A program made the translations under genes and the position numbers. Under the pieces are notes generated by a model. It worked only from the letters and a program-made list of their open reading frames with translations, was not told the origin of the DNA and did not search any database. Below are positions 4,057-63,353 of a DNA stretch of 64,000 nt, piece by piece. How positions within the stretch are numbered: position 1 is the first letter of the stretch; each line of letters begins with the position of its first letter. The DNA lies in NCBI GenBank assembly GCA_965202985.1, contig CBDBCF010000002.1, positions 638,451 to 702,450 on the forward strand, in the 5' to 3' direction. This DNA comes from Longimicrobiales bacterium. GTDB taxonomy: Bacteria > Gemmatimonadota > Gemmatimonadetes > Longimicrobiales > Gaopeijiaceae.

Positions 4057-7000
4057 GCCGCCGCCGCGCGCGAGCGTCTCTCCTTGTGGCGTTCGAAGAG
4101 CAGGTACAGGGCCGGGGTCGCCGTCAGCACCAGGAAGGTGGACGACAGGAGGCCGCCGATGAGGGCGTAGGCCAGGGCGTTCCAGATGTTCGAGTTGGCC
4201 GAGTCGCTGAGCAGCACCAGGGGCAGCATTCCCAGGATCGTGGTCGTGGAGGTCATGAGAATGGGCCGCACGCGCTCCACCGTGCCCTGGACGATAGCCG
4301 GCTCCAGCCCCAGGCCGCGTTCCCTTCGGATTCGGCTGACGTGGTCCACCAGCAGGATCGCGTTGTTGACGACGATGCCCCCCATCATGATGACGCCGAT
4401 CCACGCTTCGCGCGTGAAGTGGGCGTCGGTGAAGAAGAAGATCATGAAGACGCCGATGAGCGCCATGGGGACGGCCAGCAACACGCAGAGCGGCAGCAGC
4501 AGGGACTCGAAGAGGGCGGCGGTGACCATGTAGACCAGGAAGATCGAGACCAGCAGCACCAAGCGGAGCTGGGACTGCTCCTCGACCGACCAGCGCCAGC
4601 GGTCCGACTTCTTGACGGTGTAGCCGGGAGGCACCTCGGTGGCGTCGATGACCGTGTTGTGCACCAAGTCGCCCAGCTTGTAGGGACCTCGGAACTCGTA
4701 GGCCACGGACCGCTCGTACTGCTGGTCTTCCCGGTTGATGTTGGCCAGCACGTCGCGGGGCTCGATCTCGACCAGCTCGCCCAGGCGGACGGGCTGTCCG
4801 GAGGGGGTCACGACCAGGGTCTGCTCCAGCTCCAGCAGGTCCACCTCGCGGTTGCCCTCCAGCTTCACGTCGTAGCGGACCTCTTCGCCTCCGATCTTCA
4901 TCGTGCTGAGGCTGACCTGGCCCATGACAGCCGCCTGGATCTGGCCCACCAGCTGGGAAACGGTCAGGTCGTGGCGAGCCAGCAGGTCCCGCTTCACGGC
5001 GACGGCGAACTCGGACGCCTTGTCGCGCTCGTAGCCCCAGCCGCGCGAAGCGTTGGTGTCCACGTCGCGAACGCGGGGCAGTCGGGTCAGACGGCTGCCC
5101 AAGTCCTCGGCGATGTCCCGCACCTTCTCGTAGTTGTAGCCCAGCACCTGAATACGGTAGGTGGGCGCCGACCCTCCGCCCCCGTAGAACGACGGGCCGA
5201 ACCCGTACACGCGCACGTCCGCTCCCGAGAACCCCAGCGAGAAGGCGAAGAGCTGATCCTTGATCGCCACGGGCACCATCGTGTTTTCCAGCTCCTCCGG
5301 GAAGGTGACCCGCATTCGGGCACCTTCCTCTTCGACGTTGGCCGTGAACCTCTCCACCTCGGGCATCTGGCGCAGGCGCTCTTCGAAGTAGCGGGTCAGC
5401 TGGTCGGTGCGCTCCAAGTCCGAACCCCGGGGAAGTCGAATGTTGATGCTGATGTAGGTCTCCTGGCCCCAGCCCCCTCCCCAGATCCTGCCCCGCGTCA
5501 CGTACTCGTCGAACAGGTACCAGGAACCGCCCAAGGCGCCCAAGCCCAGACCCACCGTGAGCCAAGGCCAGCGCAGCGTGCGCGTGACCAAGCCTCGGTA
5601 GAAGCGCTCGTAGAAGGGGGGGCGGGCGGGCGGGTCGCCGGAGTCGGCGGAGGTCTCGCCGGGGGCGGGCGGCACGCCGGACGCGTAGGCGAAGCCCGAC
5701 GCGCGCGATCCCGATCCCAGCGTCGGAAGCAGCTTCTTGACCAGAGCCGGGATGAAGGTGAACGCCACCGCCAGCGACGCCAGCAGCGTGAGGGCGACCA
5801 CGATCGCCAGCGGCACGTAGAAGACGCGCAGCTCGTCCTGCATGTAGACGAACGGCACGAACACGATGAGCGTGGTGGCGGTGGCGGCCATGATCGGGAG
5901 GACCACGTGCGACGCGCCCTCGTGAATGGCCTCGTCGGGGGTGCGGCCCGATTGCCATCGTCGATAGACGTTCTCCAGCACCACGATGGAGTTGTCCACG
6001 ATGAGCCCGAACCCCATGGCCAGGCCCATGAGCGTGAGAAGGTTCAGGGACAGGCCCGAGAAGTAGATCAGGTTGAGCGAAATGAGGATCGAGAAGGCGA
6101 TCGTGGCGAAGACCACGACAGCGGACCGGAACGAGCGGAGGAAGAGCAGAAGGACCCCGAAGATCACGACCACCGAGACGGCGGCTCGGTTCCGCAGGTC
6201 CGACAGCTGGCGCCGGATCTGGCGGCTCTCGTCCCAGTTCAGGATGAACCGGGTGTTGGGCGGGTTCCGGAGCTTGACGGCGGCGATCCGCGCCTTGACC
6301 CCGTCGGCCACGCGCACCGTGTTGGCCCCGATCTCCTTGGTGACGTACATGCTGACCGCGGGCCGTCCGTTCACCCGGTTGTAGCCCCGAACATCCTCGT
6401 AGGTGTCCCGGACGACCGCGATGTCGGCGACCCGGACGATGCGCCCGTCCCGGCTGTTCACCACGGCGTTCCGAATGTCCTCGGCGGAGCCGGGGCGGTT
6501 GCGGATCGTGACCGTCCACTCGCGCCCGCCGTCGCGGACGCTTCCGGCCTCGCGCACCAGGTCCAGGGACCCCAGCCGACCCGCCACCGCTTGGGGCGTG
6601 ACCCGCATCGCCGCCATGAGTTCGCGGTTCAGCTCGACCTCCAAGAGGCGCTCCCGACCGCCGTAGGCCCGGACGGTGGCCACCCCCTCGACCCGGGCGA
6701 GTTCGGGGATCACCACGTCGTCCAGGTGCTGCCGCAGCGACTCCAGCGTGCGGGGACCCGTGAAGGTGTAGCTCAGCATGGGCCGTTGCGCGTCTTGGAA
6801 CGCCTCGGGCACGTACGGCTCGATCAGCACGCGCCGCACGCCCGGCGGCAGACTCTCTTCCAAGGTGGCCAGCCGCTCGGAGAGGTCCAGCCGGGCGAAG
6901 TCCATGTCGGTCTCGCGGTCGAACTCCACCGTGACCCGAGCCCGCCCCTCTTGCGACACCGACGTGACCTTCTCCACGCCCTGGACCTGCTGGATCACGG

Positions 7001-18093: not shown

Positions 18094-18423
18094 CTATACC
18101 GTGAACGAGCTTCCGCAGCCGCAGCCGCCCGACGCCTGCGGGTTCTTGAAGGCGAAGCCGGAGCCCATCATGGAGGTCACGTAGTCGATCTCGATCCCCT
18201 CCAAGTACTGGGCGCTGAACGGGTCCACGAAGATGCGGACGCCCCGCCGCTCGAAGACCTCGTCGTCGCCCTCGGGCGCGTCGTCGATCTCCACGCCGTA
18301 TTGGAACCCCGAACAACCGCCGGGCAAGACCGCCACGCGAAGACCCGCGCCGGGACCGCCGCCGTGCTCCTTCAGAAACCCCTGCACCTTCTCTGCGGCG
18401 TTGGGGGTAAGCGTCATCTCCAT
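18094..18423 (-). CDS. Iron-sulfur cluster insertion protein (HesB/IscA/ErpA family)
   Basis: 'LTPNAAEKVQGFL...GLRVAVLPGGCSGFQY...FVDPFSAQYLEGIEIDY...FKNPQASGGCGCGSSF' includes the C-terminal CGCG motif. The start is ambiguous (TTG 18429, ATG 18423 or ATG 18417). Confidence 0.9.
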   Translation of the reverse strand: MEMTLTPNAAEKVQGFLKEHGGGPGAGLRVAVLPGGCSGFQYGVEIDDAPEGDDEVFERRGVRIFVDPFSAQYLEGIEIDYVTSMMGSGFAFKNPQASGGCGCGSSFTV

Positions 18424-18499
18424 GGCCAAAGCTACCCGCAGGCGCAGGCAGAGGTCAACGTCGGGCGCAGGACCGGCGCGTCAAAGCGCCGCCCCGAAC

Positions 18500-19006
18500 T
18501 CAGGCCAGGGCCGCCCTCATCTTGGCCAGCGTGCGGCGGTGAACGGTGCGCACGGTCGCGGCGGGCATCCCCATGCGCCGCCCGATATCCACGAAGGTGC
18601 GCCCTTCCAAGTAGTGCTCGTGCATGATCGTTCGCTCGCGCTCCGACAAGTCGCACGTTTCGGCGATCAGTGCCGCGCAACGGACTTCGGGAGATTCGGG
18701 CGCCACGGCCTCTCCGGGCGGACGCTGGGACTTGAACCGCTCCAGCGTGTTGCGTCGGCCCGCTTCTCGACGGTTCTGGCGGAGGGCGACCAGTCGGAGC
18801 GCTCGGCGCATCCATACGCGGAACTTCGGTTCCGGAAGGGCCAGCACCCCGCGCTCCACGGCGACCACCAGGGTCTCCTGCACGACATCGTCGACATCGG
18901 CCGAATCGCGACAGAACTGCGCCGCCCGAGCGCGAAACTCCGGCCCGCATCGTTCATACATCTCGCGAAGCCTCTTGTTCTCCTCGCGACTCCCAGCTTT
19001 GGCCAC
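18500..19006 (-). CDS. ECF-type sigma-70 family factor
   Basis: GTG 19006 is preceded by AAGGAGG plus 8 nt. Region 2 'DVDDVVQETLVVAVER'. Region 4 'LSERERTIMHEHYLEGRTFVDIGRRMGMPAATVRTVHRRTLAKMR'. 168 aa. No anti-sigma gene lies on either side. Confidence 0.8.
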   Translation of the reverse strand: MAKAGSREENKRLREMYERCGPEFRARAAQFCRDSADVDDVVQETLVVAVERGVLALPEPKFRVWMRRALRLVALRQNRREAGRRNTLERFKSQRPPGEAVAPESPEVRCAALIAETCDLSERERTIMHEHYLEGRTFVDIGRRMGMPAATVRTVHRRTLAKMRAALA

Positions 19007-19037
19007 TTGGAAGACCTCCTTCTCGTAACCCTTTACT

Positions 19038-20276
19038 CTACTTCTGGCGCACCAGCCTCCTTCCGACAACATATGGAATGTCCAGCGAGTCGCGCCGGGT
19101 GCCCCAAACGTGCGTCTCCGTCGCGTCCATGAGCCGGAAACCTCTGGGCAAGAGCACTTTGCGCGCGGGCGACTCCACGTCTCCTCTGGGAAAAGAGTAC
19201 CACGCGGGCAGCGTGTCGGCCCCACGGATCGAAAGCCAGATGTGGCCGGACGAGGACAGCATTAGGCTGCTGACCGGAGGGAAGTACCCGGATTCGGGCA
19301 CGTACATGGCTTCGACAACCTTCTTTCGCAAGTCGCCGGTACCCGACAATCCTCCCGGCATTCTGCTGACGAAGCGCTCGACCATTTCGGTACGCTGGTC
19401 GGCGTACCAAGCCACCTGTTCCGGCGTGATCGGGATCGGGGCAACCGTGTCTTGCCGACGCCACAACGTGTCTCCGCCGGCCGCGATTTCCAGGATCTCA
19501 ATGAGTCCCGGCCCCCCCTTGCGACGCACGACGACCAAGGTCCCGGTGCCGAGATCGACCTCGTGAAGATCTTGGTCCGACAGCGGCTGTGCCGTCACCA
19601 AGGGGCTGCGGTCCCCTTCTCGGGGCTTCATGTGGAAGGTCGCGTTCGCTTGGTCCAACCTGTAGATCTCGTCCAGCGTCCATCCTTGATCGGTCTCCCG
19701 AATGTGGTAGACGGGTATCTGATCGACGGGATCATCGCCGTCAAGTCCCAACTCTACTCTCGTGGGCAACTCTGCTACACCCATGTAGCTTCCGTCCGAA
19801 AGATGCGCTTCCGCTTTGATGCGGGAGCCTCGAAAGCTGACCGACATGGGAGGGTTCGGAGCGGTGCTCAGCACCTCTCCGTCAAAGGAGAGCTCGGTGA
19901 ACCGCTGCGTGTCGCGCACGCGAAAGCTCGACGCGCCCAGGTGAACGCGATATGGGCCGATGAACTCTCCCGGACCCGCTCCTCGCCGCTCCCGGTCAAA
20001 GAGCAGCGATCCCTCCGGCGTCCAGATCGTAACCCTGCTCTCGTTGGGCTCCAGCACAAGCACGCGACCCTCGTCGGCGCGCACGAGATGCACCCAAGAG
20101 AAGGCGGCGGGTCCTTCGTAGGCAGGCCCGATCTTGAACTCGGCCTCGGAGGTCCAGACCGTTTGCGTGGGAACCTGCGGGCCGGAACGCATGTCCGGCC
20201 CGCAGGCGACCACCAGGACGAGAAGCCACAGCCCCAAGGGCGCGACTCGTCCTGCCCGACCGGTCCGTCGCTTCAC
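19038..20276 (-). CDS. Beta-propeller-like lipoprotein, paralogue A (GxGPGEF-motif family)
   Basis: GTG 20276 overlaps the stop of the Cys-rich gene (GTGA). Lipobox 'LLVLVVAC'. Motifs 'RRGAGPGEF' and '...SSSGHIWL'. 412 aa. The nucleotide sequence is near-identical to 20888-22114 at both ends. Confidence 0.8.
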   Translation of the reverse strand: MKRRTGRAGRVAPLGLWLLVLVVACGPDMRSGPQVPTQTVWTSEAEFKIGPAYEGPAAFSWVHLVRADEGRVLVLEPNESRVTIWTPEGSLLFDRERRGAGPGEFIGPYRVHLGASSFRVRDTQRFTELSFDGEVLSTAPNPPMSVSFRGSRIKAEAHLSDGSYMGVAELPTRVELGLDGDDPVDQIPVYHIRETDQGWTLDEIYRLDQANATFHMKPREGDRSPLVTAQPLSDQDLHEVDLGTGTLVVVRRKGGPGLIEILEIAAGGDTLWRRQDTVAPIPITPEQVAWYADQRTEMVERFVSRMPGGLSGTGDLRKKVVEAMYVPESGYFPPVSSLMLSSSGHIWLSIRGADTLPAWYSFPRGDVESPARKVLLPRGFRLMDATETHVWGTRRDSLDIPYVVGRRLVRQK

Positions 20277-20752
20277 CCGCCGATCCCCGACTTGGCAGGC
20301 CGGGGCTTCGTCACCCCTTCGGGTACAAGCTCGACTCCGATTTCCGCCGCCGCGACACGGTACACGGGCTCCCCGTTGCACTTTCGGCGGAAGACGATAT
20401 CGGGTCCGGCGACAGCGTAGTACAGTGGTCCGTCCGCCGGCATGGAGTTGCCAACCTTGAGACTGGCCAGTGCCATCGGAAGGTGTTCTTCCACTGTACC
20501 GTCGGCGGCGGCGGCTTCGCACGAAGCGCCGTATTCTTGGCACATGCAGACGAAGCCGGGGCGGCCGTCCTCGTTTTCGCCTTCGAAGCCATCTTGGCCG
20601 CAGTTCGCGGACCCCCCTTCCTGGGCTCCCGCGCAGCCCCTCCCATGCCCGTAGGAGCAGTCCTTGCACTCCATGCACTGCGCCGAGGCTTGGTCGGGGA
20701 GCGCGGCCACCGCGAAGACGGCCAGCAGGATGAACAGAATGCGATAGGTCAT
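20273..20752 (-). CDS. Secreted cysteine-rich protein of unknown function
   Basis: AGGAGA plus 7 nt precedes ATG 20752. Signal peptide 'MTYRILFILLAVFAVAALPDQASA'. The mature N-terminus 'QCMECKDCSYGHGRGCAGAQEGGSANCGQDGFEGENEDGRPGFVCMCQEYGASCE' has 8 Cys in 53 aa, with a ninth Cys later. 159 aa. Confidence 0.65.
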   Translation of the reverse strand: MTYRILFILLAVFAVAALPDQASAQCMECKDCSYGHGRGCAGAQEGGSANCGQDGFEGENEDGRPGFVCMCQEYGASCEAAAADGTVEEHLPMALASLKVGNSMPADGPLYYAVAGPDIVFRRKCNGEPVYRVAAAEIGVELVPEGVTKPRPAKSGIGG

Positions 20753-20842
20753 GTCACGTTCTCCTAGTTGAGGCGGGTTTCGGTCGCTAAAAGGACTAGG
20801 CCTGCTTCGGCATCTTGCCGCCAGGCACGGTTCCGCCGTGTG

Positions 20843-20858
20843 TGCCAATTAAGTGCCA
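20843..20858 (-). promoter_or_regulatory. Sigma54-type (-24/-12) promoter candidate upstream of the Cys-rich gene
   Basis: The minus strand reads TGGCAC-TTAAT-TGGCA, versus the consensus TGGCAC-N5-TTGCA. GG and GC are at the canonical 12-nt register with one mismatch. The site is about 90 nt upstream of ATG 20752, inside an unusually AT-rich patch. Confidence 0.45.
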
Positions 20859-20887
20859 CCCAGCCCCCGAAACGTTTCAACGCTCCG

Positions 20888-22114
20888 CTACTTCTGGCGC
20901 ACCAACCTCCTTCCGACAACGTATGGAATGTCCAGCGAGTCACGCCGGGTGCCCCAAACGTGCGTCTCCGTCGCGTCCATGAGCCGGAAACCTCTGGGCA
21001 ACAGCACCTTGCGCGCGGGCGACTCCACGTCTCCCCTGGGGAAAGTGTGCCACGCCGGCAGCGTGTCGGCCTCATGCTCGGTCCGGATCCGAAGCCAGAC
21101 GTGGCCGGACGAGGACAGCATGAGACGACGGACCGCAGGCAGGTACCCGGATTCGGGCACGTACATGGCCTCGATGGCCTTCTTTCGCAGGTCACCGGCA
21201 CCTGACAGTCCGGGCATTCTGCTCATCTCGGTGTGCAGGTCGGCGTACTCGGCCAGCAACTCGGGGGTGATCGGGATCGGGGCAACCATGTCTTGGCGCC
21301 GCCACAACGTGTCTCCGCCGGCCGCGATCTCGAGGACCTCGACGAGTCCCGGGCCCCCCTTGCGACGCACAACGACCAAGGCTCCGGTACCGAGATCGAC
21401 CTCGTGCAGATCTTGGTCCGACAACAGCTGCGCCGTCGACATGGAGGCATCTTCGCCATACTCCACCCGGAAGATCGAGTTCGCTTGGTCCAGCCTGTAG
21501 ATCTCGCCCAGCGTCCACCCTTGATCGGTCTCTCGTATGCGAAAGACGGGTATCTGATCGACGGGATCATTACCGTCAATCCCCATCCGTACTCTTGCGG
21601 ACAACGCCGCCACACCCACGTAGCTCCCGTCCGAAAGATGCGCTTCCGCTCGGACGCGGGAGCCTCGAAAGCTGGCCGACGTGGGAGGGTTCGGAGCGGT
21701 GCTCAGCACCTCGCCGTCGTAGGAGAGCTCGGTGAAGCGCTGTCGGTCGCGCACTCGAAAGCTCGACGCGCCCAGGTGAACGCGATATGGGCCGCTGAAC
21801 TCTCCCGGTCCTGCTCCTCGCCGCTCCCGGTCAAAGAGCAGCGATCCCTCCGGCGTCCAGATCGTAACCCTGCTCTCGTTGGGCTCCAGCACAAGCACGC
21901 GACCCTCGTCGGCGCGCACGAGATGCACCCAAGAGAAGGCGGCGGGTCCTTCGTAGGCAGGCCCGATCTTGAACTCGGCCTCGGAGGTCCAGACCGTTTG
22001 CGCGGGAACCTGCGGGCCGGAGCGCGCGTCCGGCCTGCAAGCGACCACCAGGACGAGAAGCCACAGCCCCAAGGGCACGACGGCCCTCGGCAGGAATGGA
22101 ATGCGACGAGTCAT
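20888..22114 (-). CDS. Beta-propeller-like lipoprotein, paralogue B (GxGPGEF-motif family)
   Basis: GAGGAG plus 8 nt precedes ATG 22114 (ATGA overlap with the gmhB stop). Lipobox 'LLVLVVAC' and motif 'RRGAGPGEF'. 408 aa. Confidence 0.8.
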   Translation of the reverse strand: MTRRIPFLPRAVVPLGLWLLVLVVACRPDARSGPQVPAQTVWTSEAEFKIGPAYEGPAAFSWVHLVRADEGRVLVLEPNESRVTIWTPEGSLLFDRERRGAGPGEFSGPYRVHLGASSFRVRDRQRFTELSYDGEVLSTAPNPPTSASFRGSRVRAEAHLSDGSYVGVAALSARVRMGIDGNDPVDQIPVFRIRETDQGWTLGEIYRLDQANSIFRVEYGEDASMSTAQLLSDQDLHEVDLGTGALVVVRRKGGPGLVEVLEIAAGGDTLWRRQDMVAPIPITPELLAEYADLHTEMSRMPGLSGAGDLRKKAIEAMYVPESGYLPAVRRLMLSSSGHVWLRIRTEHEADTLPAWHTFPRGDVESPARKVLLPRGFRLMDATETHVWGTRRDSLDIPYVVGRRLVRQK

Positions 22115-22758
22115 GGCACATGCTCCTCTGTGGAAGGTGGATCGTACATCCGTTCCAGGCGTACCGTCCGGCGGCCCGCACTCTCGGCCTCCAGCGCCTC
22201 CACGAGTTCGGCCGCCGCCGCCAGGTCGTCCACGACCCGGTACTCGGGCGAAAGGGCCGATTCCTCCTCCCGGCCCCAGCCGGTGCGGACAAGGATTCCG
22301 GTGCCGTTCAAGGCGCGGGCGGGCTCCACGTCGCTGGCCTTGTCGCCCACATAGTAGGATCCCCGGGTGACGAGGCCAAGGTCGCGGGCAGCTGTGCGGT
22401 GCATGAGGGTGCTGGGCTTGCGGCAGGTCGTCCTGGGGTCGCCGCCGGGGGGGTCGGGGCAGTAGTAGACGCCGTCCATGACCACGCCGGCCTGGGCCAG
22501 CCGGCGTTCCACCTCCGCAGCCACGCGCCGGTAGTCGTCGACGCCGTAGAGTCCGCGGCCGATCCCGGACTGGTTGGTGACCAGGACCAGGGCTAGCCCC
22601 ATGGCCTTGAGGCGAAGGAGCGCGTCCGCGGCGCCGGGGACCAGCGAGACGCCGGCCGGGTCCGACAGGTAGTGGCGCTCCACGATAATCGTGCCGTCGC
22701 GGTCCACGAACGCGGCCCGGCGGAGGGGCGTGCCGTCTTGTGGCAGGGGAAGCGTCAT
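22111..22758 (-). CDS. gmhB: HAD-IIIA phosphatase, D,D-heptose 1,7-bisphosphate phosphatase-like
   Basis: 'AAFVDRDGTII' (DxDGT), 'VTNQSGIGRG', 'YYCPDPP...CRKPS', 'YYVGDKASD'. ATG 22758 overlaps the selA stop. Confidence 0.75.
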   Translation of the reverse strand: MTLPLPQDGTPLRRAAFVDRDGTIIVERHYLSDPAGVSLVPGAADALLRLKAMGLALVLVTNQSGIGRGLYGVDDYRRVAAEVERRLAQAGVVMDGVYYCPDPPGGDPRTTCRKPSTLMHRTAARDLGLVTRGSYYVGDKASDVEPARALNGTGILVRTGWGREEESALSPEYRVVDDLAAAAELVEALEAESAGRRTVRLERMYDPPSTEEHVP

Positions 22759-45699: not shown

Positions 45700-48318
<2,619 letters not shown>

Positions 48319-48353: not shown

Positions 48354-48451
48354 CTGCCATTTTGGCAGGACGAGGGCGCCCCGAGCGCCATTTTCCTGCC
48401 ATTTTGGCAGGTTGCGACGCGACTTGACCGGCCGTTCTGCCATTTTGGCAG
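48354..48451. promoter_or_regulatory. Three phased copies of a perfect 15-bp palindrome CTGCCATTTTGGCAG in the clpB/OPT divergent intergenic region
   Basis: Exact copies lie at 48354-48368, 48396-48410 and 48437-48451 (start-to-start 42 and 41 bp). Degenerate relatives are GCCATTTTCCTGCC (48387-48400) and GCCATTATTGGC (48561-48572). Confidence 0.7.
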
Positions 48452-48609
48452 TCCTTCGCGACCGGCCCGGCGCAACACGCGGCCTATCCATGAAAGATTC
48501 GTGCCACGGCTTGGCGTCGGCCCCCGGCGGGCCTAGCCTTGTCCCGCTTCCGGGCCGGGGGCCATTATTGGCGGCCTACTTCCCTCCCAGAAGGACGCGC
48601 CGTTCCAAG

Positions 48610-60087: not shown

Positions 60088-63000
60088 ATGCACCCACCGC
60101 TACCGAGACGGGCCCTTGGAGTCGCCACCAGCCTCACGACGGGATCACGGGGGGGGGGGGGGGGGGGGGGATCGCCCTTCTGCTCTTCTTCCTCGTGGCC
60201 ACGGGCCAAGCAGCGGGCCAGCAGGCGGGCACCGTCACTGGCATGGTTTCCGACGTGGCGACGGGCCAGACGCTGGAATCCGCGCTAGTTCGGCTGAACG
60301 ACAACGAGGCCGGGGTCCTCACCAACCAGTCCGGCCGCTACCTGATGGTCGGCGTGCCTGCTGGGACCCATCAGCTGAACTTCCTCATCGTCGGCTACGC
60401 CGAGCAGACGCTCGAGGTCACGGTTGTTGCCGGCGAGACCACGGTCTTGAACGCCGAACTCGCGGCACAGGCGATCCAGATGCAGGACTTGGTCGTGACG
60501 GGGGTGGCCCGGGCTACGCCACGCGTGAAGCTCCCCTTCACGGTCGAGAAGCTGGACATCGCCGACGTTCCCGTGCCCGCCGTATCCGCCGAGTCGTTCC
60601 TGGTGGGCAAGGTGCCGGGCGTGAAGGTCGTCCGTGGCTCAGGCCAGCCAGGCCAGACCGGCGACATCCTGCTTCGAGGCGCCACCGCCATTAGTGGCGG
60701 CCAAGGCCCTCTCGTTATCGTCGACGGCATCATTACCGACGACAGCTTCGACGACATCGCGGCACTGGACATCGAATCGATGGAGGTCGTCAAGGGAGCC
60801 GCCGGCGCGTCCCTCTACGGTTCACGGGCGGCCAACGGCGTCATCCAAATCCGCACCAAGCGCGGAACCGGCTTCGGTGGCCGCGATTACAGCCGAATCG
60901 TAACCAACAACGAACTCGGCTCCGAACGAATGTACGGCCGCGTTCCACTGTCCCAGAATCATCCTTGGAAGCTCGACGCTGGCGGCAATCTTGTGGACGT
61001 ACGTGGCGAGTCGATCCCCGACATCACCGACCCCGACGCAAACAACCCTGCACTCAACGGCGACGACGTTTTCACGTCGTTTCAGGACGGAAGGTGGCCG
61101 TCGTCGCTTCCCAACTACGACCAGCTCGGCCGGATTTTCTCCCCCGGGACGCTGCTCACGAACTCCGTTGCGACGGAGGGACGCAATGGGGCCACCAACT
61201 ATCGGGCGTCCTTTGAGCACCGGGTCGACCGCGGTATCCTGCCCGACTTCAACGACGGATTTGGTCGAAAGGGATTCCGGATCAACGTTGATCACGATGT
61301 CCGAGACAACCTCGCAGTCTCACTGAGCACGTCATACAGCCAACGAACCCAGCAAGACATGGGGGACACTCCTTGGTATGAAATCACGTTCATGCCGCCG
61401 TACGTGGACCTGCTTAGACGTGATCCATCAACGATCGGGCTTCCCTTCTGTCCGTCCAACGGCTGTCTCTACGTGCACCCGGATCCGTTCAACGAAGGAA
61501 CTGTCGACAACCCGCTGTACAACCTGGAATTGTATGATTTTCGTGACAGGAGACAAACCGTAGCTGCTGCTGCTACCGTCCGGTGGACACCCTTTGCCTG
61601 GATGGATCTTGAAGGCGTCTTCGGTATGGATCGCAAGGCTTTGGCTCAAACGGATATTGTTCCCGAGGGTCTCCAGACGATCACTACGGGCACTTCCCCT
61701 GGCAGCTACTTCCGCTATCAGAATCACGATCAAGACGTCAACGCCGAGGCTACTCTCTCGTTCAACAAAGCGTTCGGAGACTTCGCTACCAGAACTCGAG
61801 TTCGTTATTCGCAGGAGAACAGTTCCTACGACAGATTCGACACGTATGGTGAAGACTTCTTGGCCTCCGATATTCCTCGGCTCAATAACCTCGACCCGGA
61901 GACTTTCTCCTCCGGCTCGTACATTAGCGAAGTCGTCTCTGAGAACTATTTCCTGATCTCCGCGTTGGACTACCAAGGCAAGTACATTCTCGACGGCGTA
62001 GTTCGCCGAGACGGCTCCAGCCTCTTTGGCGAGAACCAGAGATGGCACACCTTCGCTCGCGGGTCCGCTGCGTGGAGGCTAGCTCAGGAAGCTTGGTGGC
62101 CATTTGACCAGATCAACGAATTCAAGCTCCGCTATTCCGTCGGTACGGCAGGTACTCGTCCTAGGTTCGAGGCCCAGTACGAGACCTACAGCGTCGGCGG
62201 CGGCAGCATTACGCCGGTCACACTAGGCAACAAGGAGCTCAAGCCCCAGAAGACCGTCGAAGTCGAATACGGCATGGACATGGTCTTGTTCGACAGGTTC
62301 AACATGGGCCTGACCTACGCCACAACGTCTTCCGAGGATCAGATTATCCAGGTCCCGCTTCCCAAGGCGGGCGGATTCGGTTCGCAATGGCAAAACGCAG
62401 GGACCTTGCAGTCCAGCACGTGGGAGTACTTCCTCGAGACTTCGCTGATCAACACCGAAAACGTGACCTGGACCGCCAGACTGAACTTCGACCGCACGCT
62501 AGAAGAGATCACGCGCCTCGATCGACCTGCGTTCCGAAGCGGCTTTTTCTACTTTCGCGACGATGAAATCTTCGGCTCCTTCTTTGGTGCAGCTTGGGCG
62601 CGGACATGTGCCCACCTTCCCGCTGGCGCACCGTGTGACCAGTTCGAACTTAATGACGACGGGCTACTCGTCTGGGTCGGGTCCGGAGCCAGCTACACCG
62701 ACGGCATAGGAAACGGCCTTTGGGGCACCGAATCGTCCGGCCAGACAGGAGAAGATGTATTTCAGTGGGGCATGCCCATTAGGAGGTTCGACGAGTGCGA
62801 GAGTCGCCGGCAGGGTGGCCTTGGTTGCTCCGATTTCCTTTATATGGGTAACACCAGGCCCGATTTCAGCGTGAGTTTTTCCAACAACTTCAGATGGAAG
62901 GACCTGACGCTGTATGTGCTGTTGGACGGCGAATTTGGCACGGAGATATACAACAGGACTCGTCAATGGGCCTATCGAGACAATCGCTCCGGCGACCAAG

Positions 63001-63353
63001 ATCAGCTCGGCAAGGCGGACGGCCTGAAAAAACCGGTGGCGTATTACCAGCGCCTCTACAACACCAACGCACTCAACGAGTGGTTCGTGGAGGACGGCAC
63101 GTTCATCAAGGTTCGCGAAGCATCTGTGCGATACTCGGTTCGGCCGGACTGGATCGACTCGCTGTTCGCCGGCCGGGTCACCGCGGTCGAGCTCAATCTG
63201 ATTGGCCGCAACCTCTTCACGTTTACCGACTACGCCGGCTATGATCCCGAGGTTGGCAACGGCAATGGCGGATCGGACGTAGTCGGGCGCATAGACAGCT
63301 ACTCCTATCCCAACTTCCGAACCATCAGCGCGAACGTCGAGATCATCTTCTGA
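60088..63353 (+). CDS. SusC/RagA-family TonB-dependent outer-membrane receptor, with the reading frame interrupted inside a G22 tract
   Basis: GGAGG plus 8 nt precedes ATG 60088. The main frame is open from 60171 to the stop at 63353. CarboxypepD_reg-like 'GTVTGMVSDVATGQTL...'. Plug 'ILLRGATAISGGQGPLVIVDGI...MEVVKGAAGASLYGSRAANGVIQIRTKRG'. C-terminal '...NVEIIF'. ATG 60088 is in a different frame from 60171 onward, and joining them needs G23 or G20. Confidence 0.85.
60149..60170 (+). repeat. Homopolymeric G22 tract
   Basis: Counted directly: g at 60149-60170, flanked by ...gatcac and atcgcc.... Confidence 0.95.

Follow-up and report, generated by a model that had tools for sequence, protein, structure and literature searches.

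Two groups of described systems lie closest to the locus treated here. ECF (extracytoplasmic function) sigma factors that lack an anti-sigma factor and are under transcriptional control form a known class, to which belong HrpL (ECF32, controlled by sigma54 and HrpRS) and SigE of Streptomyces (ECF39, controlled by CseABC, of which CseA is a lipoprotein) (PMC8999054). The second group is that of the DUF5128 (PF17170)/NHL exported proteins, for example BF0058 of Bacteroides fragilis (PDB 4RAA), for which a full-text literature search with "DUF5128" found no paper. Our locus lies in a 64,000-nucleotide stretch of a Longimicrobiales contig (CBDBCF010000002.1; "the window") and comprises three minus-strand genes: one for a secreted nine-cysteine protein (the Cys-rich protein, 159 aa, 20273–20752), recognized by its open reading frame (ORF), signal peptide and family profile; lipoA, for an NHL/DUF5128-type six-bladed beta-propeller lipoprotein (412 aa, 19038–20276); and one for an orphan, highly divergent ECF-type sigma factor (168 aa, 18500–19006), recognized by its domain matches. 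A previous reading of the letters alone (the sequence-only reading) proposed the trio as a candidate module in which a sigma54-like promoter drives two exported proteins that could gate the sigma factor. Comparison of gene neighbourhoods across genomes points elsewhere: the conserved unit is the pair of Cys-rich protein and propeller lipoprotein, with the sigma factor a recent addition in one narrow clade.

The evidence for the pair comes from 14 distant loci: 13 true Cys-rich loci found by a family-alignment scan of 185,579 GTDB species genomes, all of them in Gemmatimonadota and mostly in metagenome-assembled genomes (MAGs) of Longimicrobiales, and one metagenomic locus (L008). In all 14, the Cys-rich gene is followed directly and on the same strand by a homologue of lipoA (40–46% identity), the stop of the first and the start of the second overlapping or lying within about 12 nt of each other. 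Further lipoprotein paralogues often come after the pair, and some of the scanned genomes hold several Cys-rich copies. Because this same-strand adjacency, with overlapping or abutting stop and start, recurs in every locus found, we regard the Cys-rich gene, on the evidence of gene order, as real, conserved and functionally tied to the propeller lipoprotein. A sigma factor is present in none of the 14, whether the query was the window sigma (tblastn and phmmer) or RpoE and SigW (phmmer), and none appeared when 33 neighbouring ORFs were scanned with Pfam; loci L004 to L022 have none, nor do the Pfam-annotated contexts of other lipoprotein relatives. One "Sigma70_r4_2" match beside the pair in L019 was traced to the helix-turn-helix of an IS21-type transposase and discarded. 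The co-occurrence that the sequence-only reading suggested checking across genomes is thus borne out for the pair (14 of 14) and fails for the ECF sigma factor (0 of 14).

Only near-identical relatives (dS, the synonymous divergence, about 0.1) carry the sigma gene. Three contigs with close relatives of the Cys-rich protein have the order selA, HAD, lipoprotein, one or more Cys-rich/lipoprotein units, sigma, erpA, a metallo-beta-lactamase-fold (MBL) gene and purH, one of them (L001) with two such units. Synonymous divergence (dS) in erpA and the MBL gene is 0–0.17 among these close genomes, so their agreement in gene order says little about function, and the trio does not hold as a conserved module. 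At the same site in two related lineages, L006/L007 and L024, the order is HAD, lipoprotein, erpA, MBL gene, purH, without a Cys-rich gene, a second lipoprotein or a sigma factor; the lipoprotein there is 52–55% identical, and the HAD protein 75% identical in L006/L007. The cassette, as we call the pair, sits at the head of lipoprotein-paralogue arrays, duplicates in tandem and evolves faster than its flanks, the pair having diversified with a nonsynonymous divergence (dN) of 0.03–0.16 and dN/dS of 0.3–0.7. Insertion sequence (IS) elements lie near some arrays. A separate contig, L009 (1–17239), has at least five DUF5128-like lipoprotein paralogues amid ISL3 and IS21 transposase genes and genes for ankyrin-repeat proteins, with no Cys-rich gene detected in it. 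Contig names such as RHO1_bin, RHO3_bin and SB0662_bin suggest, as names only, that some of these Gemmatimonadota are perhaps sponge-associated.

The Cys-rich protein represents a new, previously undescribed family without a detectable sequence or fold relative. A word-indexed search gave just seven close relatives, and when 1.84 billion representatives were searched exhaustively with a profile, 51 proved to belong to the family, so that conservation of the ORF, one of the points of the earlier reading, is well established. Members have about 150 residues and a signal peptide ending in A-x-A before Q. In the window, the N-terminus (MTYRILFILLAVFAVAALPDQASA followed by Q) resembles a Sec signal peptide with a cleavage site between AxA and Q; it opens the protein, which has no cytoplasmic domain, and cleavage would leave a mature exported, disulfide-rich protein of ~134 aa. 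Eight of the nine cysteines fall within 53 residues, from C26 to C78 (CxxCxxC...C...C...CxC...C), and the ninth is C125. The Cys-rich beta domain (26–78) of the protein is followed by a helix, then by a second, small beta domain that contains RRKC[DN], and last by a flexible tail with GG at its end; across the family the conserved C-terminal domain contains ...ADGPFFY...VVRRKCD..., and Gly-Gly or Ala-Gly is the usual end of the tail. Seven cysteines are invariant (C26, C29, C40, C51, C71, C78 and C125), while C32 and C69 are absent jointly in six members, a pattern that suggests a C32–C69 disulfide as the best account of their joint loss. The cysteine count is odd throughout the family (9 or 7), and the sole cysteine of the lipoproteins is that of the lipobox.

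No known family or fold came near. The AlphaFold2 (AF2) model (predicted local distance difference test score, pLDDT, 78) had no fold match in PDB or BFVD (template-modelling score at most 0.22), the family profile matched nothing among PDB sequences, Pfam matched no family member, and NCBIfam and PADLOC gave nothing for the Cys-rich protein. Large proteins among the profile matches (P0121 with B_lectin repeats, P0142 with RCC1 repeats) were judged spurious, the matches being to repeated Gly-rich hairpins. A ferredoxin-like Fe-S reading of CxxCxxC was set aside, since the signal is of the Sec type without a twin arginine and the joint loss of C32 and C69 fits a disulfide. About two-thirds of the members have a C-terminal glycine, independently of the stop codon or of the distance to the next gene. 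We also weighed, and rejected, amidation of this glycine by a propeller of the PAL type: the lipoprotein has no conserved His/metal site, PAL is not among its top folds, and there is no monooxygenase partner.

The second member of the pair, lipoA, begins with the lipoprotein signal KRRTGRAGRVAPLGLWLLVLVVAC, read from the sequence, in which an n-region and h-region are followed by the lipobox LVVAC, of the form [LVI][ASTVI][GAS]C; the lipobox cysteine, Cys25, is kept in at least 90% of 59 relatives. Its GAGPGEF is an instance of G-x-G-P-G-E-F, an NHL-like blade motif. Single-sequence searches were blank: lipoA has no Pfam match at E ≤ 0.1, the lipoproteins fall below every NCBIfam threshold, and PADLOC found nothing. 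The profile of the 59-member family, on the other hand, matches the Bacteroides exported protein 4RAA as well as NHL-repeat propellers, the latter with E-values as low as 1e-34, and 32 of the 59 aligned relatives match PF17170 (DUF5128, "6-bladed beta-propeller"), by which the window lipoprotein would belong to that Pfam family through transitivity only. In the AF2 model (pLDDT 90; predicted template-modelling score 0.86) the protein folds into a propeller, interrupted by a helical insertion at 285–323; the known structures that match it best are NHL domains and BF0058. Model and profile together predict an NHL/DUF5128-type six-bladed propeller. The likeness to the DUF5128/NHL exported proteins extends to a length of ~400 aa, the lipoprotein signal, the G-x-G-P-G-E-F motif, the fold and the occurrence of multi-paralogue arrays; the differences are the scores below Pfam and NCBIfam thresholds and the helical insertion. 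To our knowledge, an obligatory Cys-rich partner gene has not been reported for DUF5128.

Small disulfide-rich and beta-propeller subunits also meet in an enzyme, the methylamine dehydrogenase MauA/MauB with its tryptophan tryptophylquinone (TTQ) cofactor. A secreted Cys-rich protein of ~130 aa beside a propeller protein of ~45 kDa recalls this arrangement, as an architectural analogy only. Unlike MauB, the propeller is six-bladed and NHL-type, not seven-bladed, and neither the window Cys-rich protein nor several other family members contain any Trp, so that TTQ or cysteine tryptophylquinone (CTQ) is impossible in the window protein. No mauG-type or radical-SAM maturation genes occur in the annotated neighbourhoods examined.

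The third gene encodes a sigma factor with matches to PF04542 and PF04545/PF08281 (Sigma70_r2 and r4) over residues 16–82 and 120–165, and with 59.1 bits on TIGR02937 (cut-off 42.9). Residues 9–157, nearly the full length, align weakly (30.7 bits) to M. tuberculosis SigL. It has sigma2 and sigma4 only, without region 3 or region 1, as is typical of ECF (group 4) factors of about 170–200 aa. It belongs to no curated subfamily, the best NCBIfam subfamily scores being far below their cut-offs, and a search of 5.8 billion proteins at E ≤ 1e-5 returned its own cluster (at least 90% identity) as the sole match. The next relatives, from a JGI metagenome scan, are 24–34% identical over most of the length, with short segments up to 56%; none of these has a lipoprotein or Cys-rich neighbour, and some distant relatives carry zf-HC2/FecR anti-sigma genes. 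A tblastn search against phages gave no match. Within the clade, the sigma gene is under purifying selection (dN/dS 0.14–0.29), with a conserved Shine–Dalgarno (SD) sequence and start codon, which is GTG at 19006 in the window and ATG at the same position in relatives. The canonical arrangement is an adjacent, co-transcribed anti-sigma gene of the ASD, zf-HC2, RskA or FecR type. Here, as the sequence-only reading had observed, no anti-sigma gene adjoins: lipoA lies upstream and erpA, with its own promoter, downstream.

In these respects the window sigma factor resembles HrpL and SigE, being a short two-domain ECF factor without an adjacent anti-sigma gene, with a possible -24/-12 promoter and a lipoprotein gene in the operon. 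It differs in having no affinity to a defined subgroup, no enhancer-binding protein (EBP) or two-component system nearby and a distribution limited to a narrow clade, and it is the last gene of the unit, not the first. Nor does it follow ECF39/SigE-CseABC, where a lipoprotein gene and a two-component system come after sigma: in the window the order is reversed, with the lipoprotein before sigma.

The transcription unit was delimited from the layout of the locus. Between 16.5 and 24.5 kb the minus strand reads selA, HAD, lipoB, Cys-rich gene, lipoA, sigma, erpA/iscA, MBL gene and purH. The HAD gene (22111–22758, minus strand, after selA) encodes a HAD-IIIA/GmhB-like phosphatase, and its stop overlaps the ATG of lipoB as ATGA (22111–22114), which places lipoB in the selA-HAD operon. 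lipoB (20888–22114, minus strand, 408 aa) is an unpaired paralogue of the propeller lipoprotein with a positional orthologue in L006 and L024; the two proteins, taken for near-identical at first sight, share 83% identity, with a dS of 0.28. After lipoB comes the 135-nt intergenic region with cassette promoter and leader (20753–20887, minus strand), defined by sequence motifs and comparison with relatives. The stop TGA of the Cys-rich gene (20273–20275) overlaps the GTG start of lipoA (20274–20276) as GTGA, and a 31-nt spacer with the SD AAGGAGG (19007–19037, minus strand) leads to sigma. erpA/iscA itself (18094–18423, minus strand) was recognized by a TIGR00049 match. The sequence-only reading had all of this right: gene coordinates, GTGA overlap, 31-nt gap, AAGGAGG, nine cysteines and erpA as the next gene.

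Downstream, the boundary is a sigma70-like erpA promoter, TTGACC-N18-TAGCTT (18429–18458, minus strand), which is conserved in relatives as TTGACC-N18-TA(G)nnT even in L006 and L024, where sigma is absent. Its conservation implies that erpA is a separate transcription unit and that the cassette unit ends after sigma. The element ends about 5 nt before the ATG at 18423, a position that suggests a leaderless or very short-leader mRNA. On the minus strand we found no sigma70-type promoter and no intergenic terminator, the sole terminator-like site lying inside lipoA (19201–19215), and Rfam found nothing in 17.5–23 kb. With a 31-nt gap, no terminator or promoter detected and erpA under its own promoter, sigma is probably co-transcribed with the pair. 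Base composition also marks out the block: GC at third codon positions (GC3) is 0.76–0.79 in lipoB, the Cys-rich gene, lipoA and sigma, and 0.87–0.90 in the flanking selA, HAD, erpA and MBL genes. The lower GC3 of these four genes (18500–22114) could reflect either a different origin or a different expression level. The promoter patch had been called AT-rich, and it is so in relative terms, in a window of ~72% GC; the whole four-gene block shares the trait, with 60–67% GC.

The account that we consider about as probable as all else together is that of a transcription unit of three genes, particular to this lineage, which has the conserved cassette of two genes as its base and in which the sigma factor is set by co-transcription and is not gated by the exported pair. 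The Cys-rich protein and the lipoprotein would be made in fixed proportion and form a complex in the cell envelope, with the small subunit on the propeller. Because no catalytic constellation is conserved in the pair, we take it to be a binding module and not an enzyme. Paralogue arrays, tandem duplication, fast evolution and poly-G promoters (see below) suggest together that these are envelope or surface proteins whose expression varies. Transcripts from the cassette promoter would most likely run on into sigma, whose activity would then be set by its amount, that is, by transcriptional control, or by an unlinked regulator. The remodelled promoter of the window clade might be fired by a sigma54 holoenzyme, by the ECF factor itself, or with an activator bound at a TGGCAC repeat.

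Several points weigh against this account. The Cys-rich gene, lipoA and sigma are present or absent as one block in comparison with L006 and L024, and a three-gene functional module would look alike. We infer co-transcription from spacing only, and the lipoA-sigma spacer has 54 extra nt in L002 and L003, where the resulting 85-nt gaps could hold a promoter. The 64-kb window leaves room for an unlinked anti-sigma factor elsewhere in the genome. Finally, the idea of phase variation draws on homopolymer lengths in assembled MAGs, which are error-prone, and the window promoter has no long G-run.

The promoters of the distant cassettes share a skeleton of TTGCGN, a spacer containing 6–14 G, and TACNNT, with the ATG 61–74 nt further on and a conserved GGTACACTCC box just before the SD. 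Hexamers were assigned by eye and regular expression only, and by this measure TTGCGN-polyG-TACNNT occurs in 9 of the 14 distant cassettes, with a spacer of 12–21 nt that varies with the G-run (L008, 7440–7545; L010, L011, L012, L016 and L021, about 5890–6000; L014, 4880–4997; L015, 5880–5990; L018, 540–647). The contig of L013 breaks in poly-C/poly-G at the same promoter spot. Homopolymeric tracts in the -35/-10 spacer occur in phase-variable promoters such as those of Neisseria porA and opc, and the poly-G cassette promoters look like slipped-strand promoters of this kind by analogy, with a G-run between the two hexamers. The window promoter is homologous to those of the relatives, with its G-run broken (GGGGGctGGGtGG) into runs of G5 and G3 that are not slippage-prone; we would call a promoter phase-variable with a spacer homopolymer of about 8 nt or more and length polymorphism, and the longest G-run in the window is 5. 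RNAalifold on 15 cassette leaders gave no consensus structure, though single leaders look prone to form hairpins.

Reading 5' to 3' on the minus strand, the window's intergenic region contains a TTGAAA (20875–20880), a palindrome GAAACGTTTC (20869–20878), the sigma54 -24/-12 look-alike TGGCACTTAATTGGCA (20843–20858), a GGAACC (20829–20834) and the SD AGGAG of the Cys-rich gene in the leader (20761–20765). A sigma54-to-ECF cascade, in which an EBP would activate TGGCAC-N5-TTGGCA as a true -24/-12 promoter, as for hrpL, is the first alternative to be weighed. The element is where the sequence-only reading placed it, 90 nt before the ATG; it matches at 10 of the 11 specified positions, has the correct GG-N10-GC spacing, precedes both Cys-rich copies of L001 and is conserved in four of five close copies. 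It is not significant in itself, as the window has two such matches with at most one mismatch against 1.38 expected by chance. The -12 GC is lost in L002 and mostly absent at the homologous position in distant loci, and the same letters can equally be read as a direct repeat, TGGCAC-N5-TGGCAC (20842–20858, minus strand), whose TGGCAC element occupies the position of the relatives' GGGGTAC and would have arisen there. The 64-kb window has neither an EBP gene nor any GAFTGA-containing ORF. Longimicrobiales do have sigma54 activators: in L012 (4121–5851) and L016 (4144–5865) a complete EBP gene (Sigma54_activat and HTH_8, with GAFTGA) immediately precedes the cassette on its strand, and L015, from the same genome as L012, has a partial 3' end copy of the EBP gene before another cassette. 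No good -24/-12 site was seen at the L012 and L016 loci. Such a cascade already has an example in HrpL (PMC8999054) and would be no novelty. A sigma54 promoter of the cassette is plausible but unproven, and the cascade as a whole we hold to be rather unlikely.

An autoregulatory loop is the next alternative. The orphan sigma factor would recognize the remodelled promoter, the cassette being its own operon and its main regulon under positive feedback. ECF sigma factors commonly autoregulate, and GGAACC, invariant in the clade promoter, is a common ECF -35 core; moreover, the clade that owns the sigma factor is the one whose cassette promoter departs from TTGCG-polyG-TACNNT. However, no matching -10 of the CGT type lies at 16–17 nt, the coincidence concerns a single lineage, and the whole 135-nt region is conserved among the close genomes, so that conservation of the hexamer does not discriminate. 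We regard this loop as unlikely too, and a little more doubtful than the cascade.

Far less probable is the idea at the heart of the sequence-only reading, that the two exported proteins together make up an extracytoplasmic sensor of redox state, metal or ligand that gates the ECF factor post-translationally, in place of an anti-sigma factor. The missing anti-sigma gene, the tight packing of the three genes and their joint gain or loss speak for it, and there is a precedent for a lipoprotein modulating an ECF pathway in CseA of the SigE system (PMC8999054). Neither exported protein, however, has a cytoplasmic or transmembrane part with which to touch sigma, the one having a signal peptide and the other a lipobox; the pair stands without sigma in all 14 other loci; and no transducer is found in the neighbourhood, with no histidine kinase or response regulator gene in 16.5–24.5 kb. 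Furthermore, two of the five Cys-rich copies in the window's clade are damaged N-terminally, by a +1 frameshift after codon 4 in L002 (5923–5965) and by a change of ATG to ATA in L003 (1373), with lipoA and sigma intact in both. The dN/dS of the Cys-rich gene reaches 0.69 within the clade, and its lesions, taken with the purifying selection on sigma, argue against obligatory gating of sigma by the Cys-rich protein. The broader proposition, that in this clade the exported pair is wired to a dedicated ECF factor without a membrane-spanning anti-sigma factor, through an unlinked transducer or feedback on the operon's own promoter, we judge just as improbable; if true, it would amount to an ECF signalling architecture not seen before.

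Least probable of all is that the Cys-rich protein is a secreted toxin or resembles a bacteriocin, with the lipoprotein as its immunity partner and sigma as an unrelated neighbour, a reading for which the small secreted protein followed by a lipoprotein, the tandem arrays, the divergence faster than that of the flanks and the nearby IS elements might be cited, and against which stand the absence of conserved toxin-like catalytic residues (only Cys, Gly and one Lys are invariant in the Cys-rich family), the lack of a PADLOC or Pfam match, the many lipoprotein paralogues without a partner and the place of lipoB in a housekeeping operon.

On the preferred account of a two-gene cassette with an added sigma gene, what is new is a Cys-rich family not described before, the strict link in Longimicrobiales between this family and DUF5128/NHL-like lipoproteins, and the occurrence of poly-G promoters, and not a conserved module running from sigma54 through a sensor to an ECF factor. 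The family is the first candidate protein partner for the large, function-less families of DUF5128-like lipoproteins. The poly-G promoters suggest that the little-studied and largely uncultured Gemmatimonadota may switch envelope proteins on and off. The orphan sigma factor shows that an envelope operon can take up a regulator as its last gene, and is a candidate for purely transcriptional control of an ECF factor. Current models are not overturned, as even the most favourable reading would be a variant of known logic.

Two further features were noted elsewhere in the window. A G22 homopolymer (60149–60170) lies in the signal-peptide region of a SusC/TonB-dependent receptor (CarboxypepD_reg and Plug; ORF 60195–63353), whose upstream ATG at 60089 is one base out of frame, as would result from a phase-variable gene in its "off" state or else from an assembly error in the homopolymer. 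The leader of clpB (45700–48318) has three copies of CTGCCAAAATGGCAG with inverted arms CTGCCA/TGGCAG (48380–48450, minus strand), which may be a heat-shock operator, and the only other sigma54-like match of the window (48491–48506, without the -12 G) lies just upstream of these repeats.

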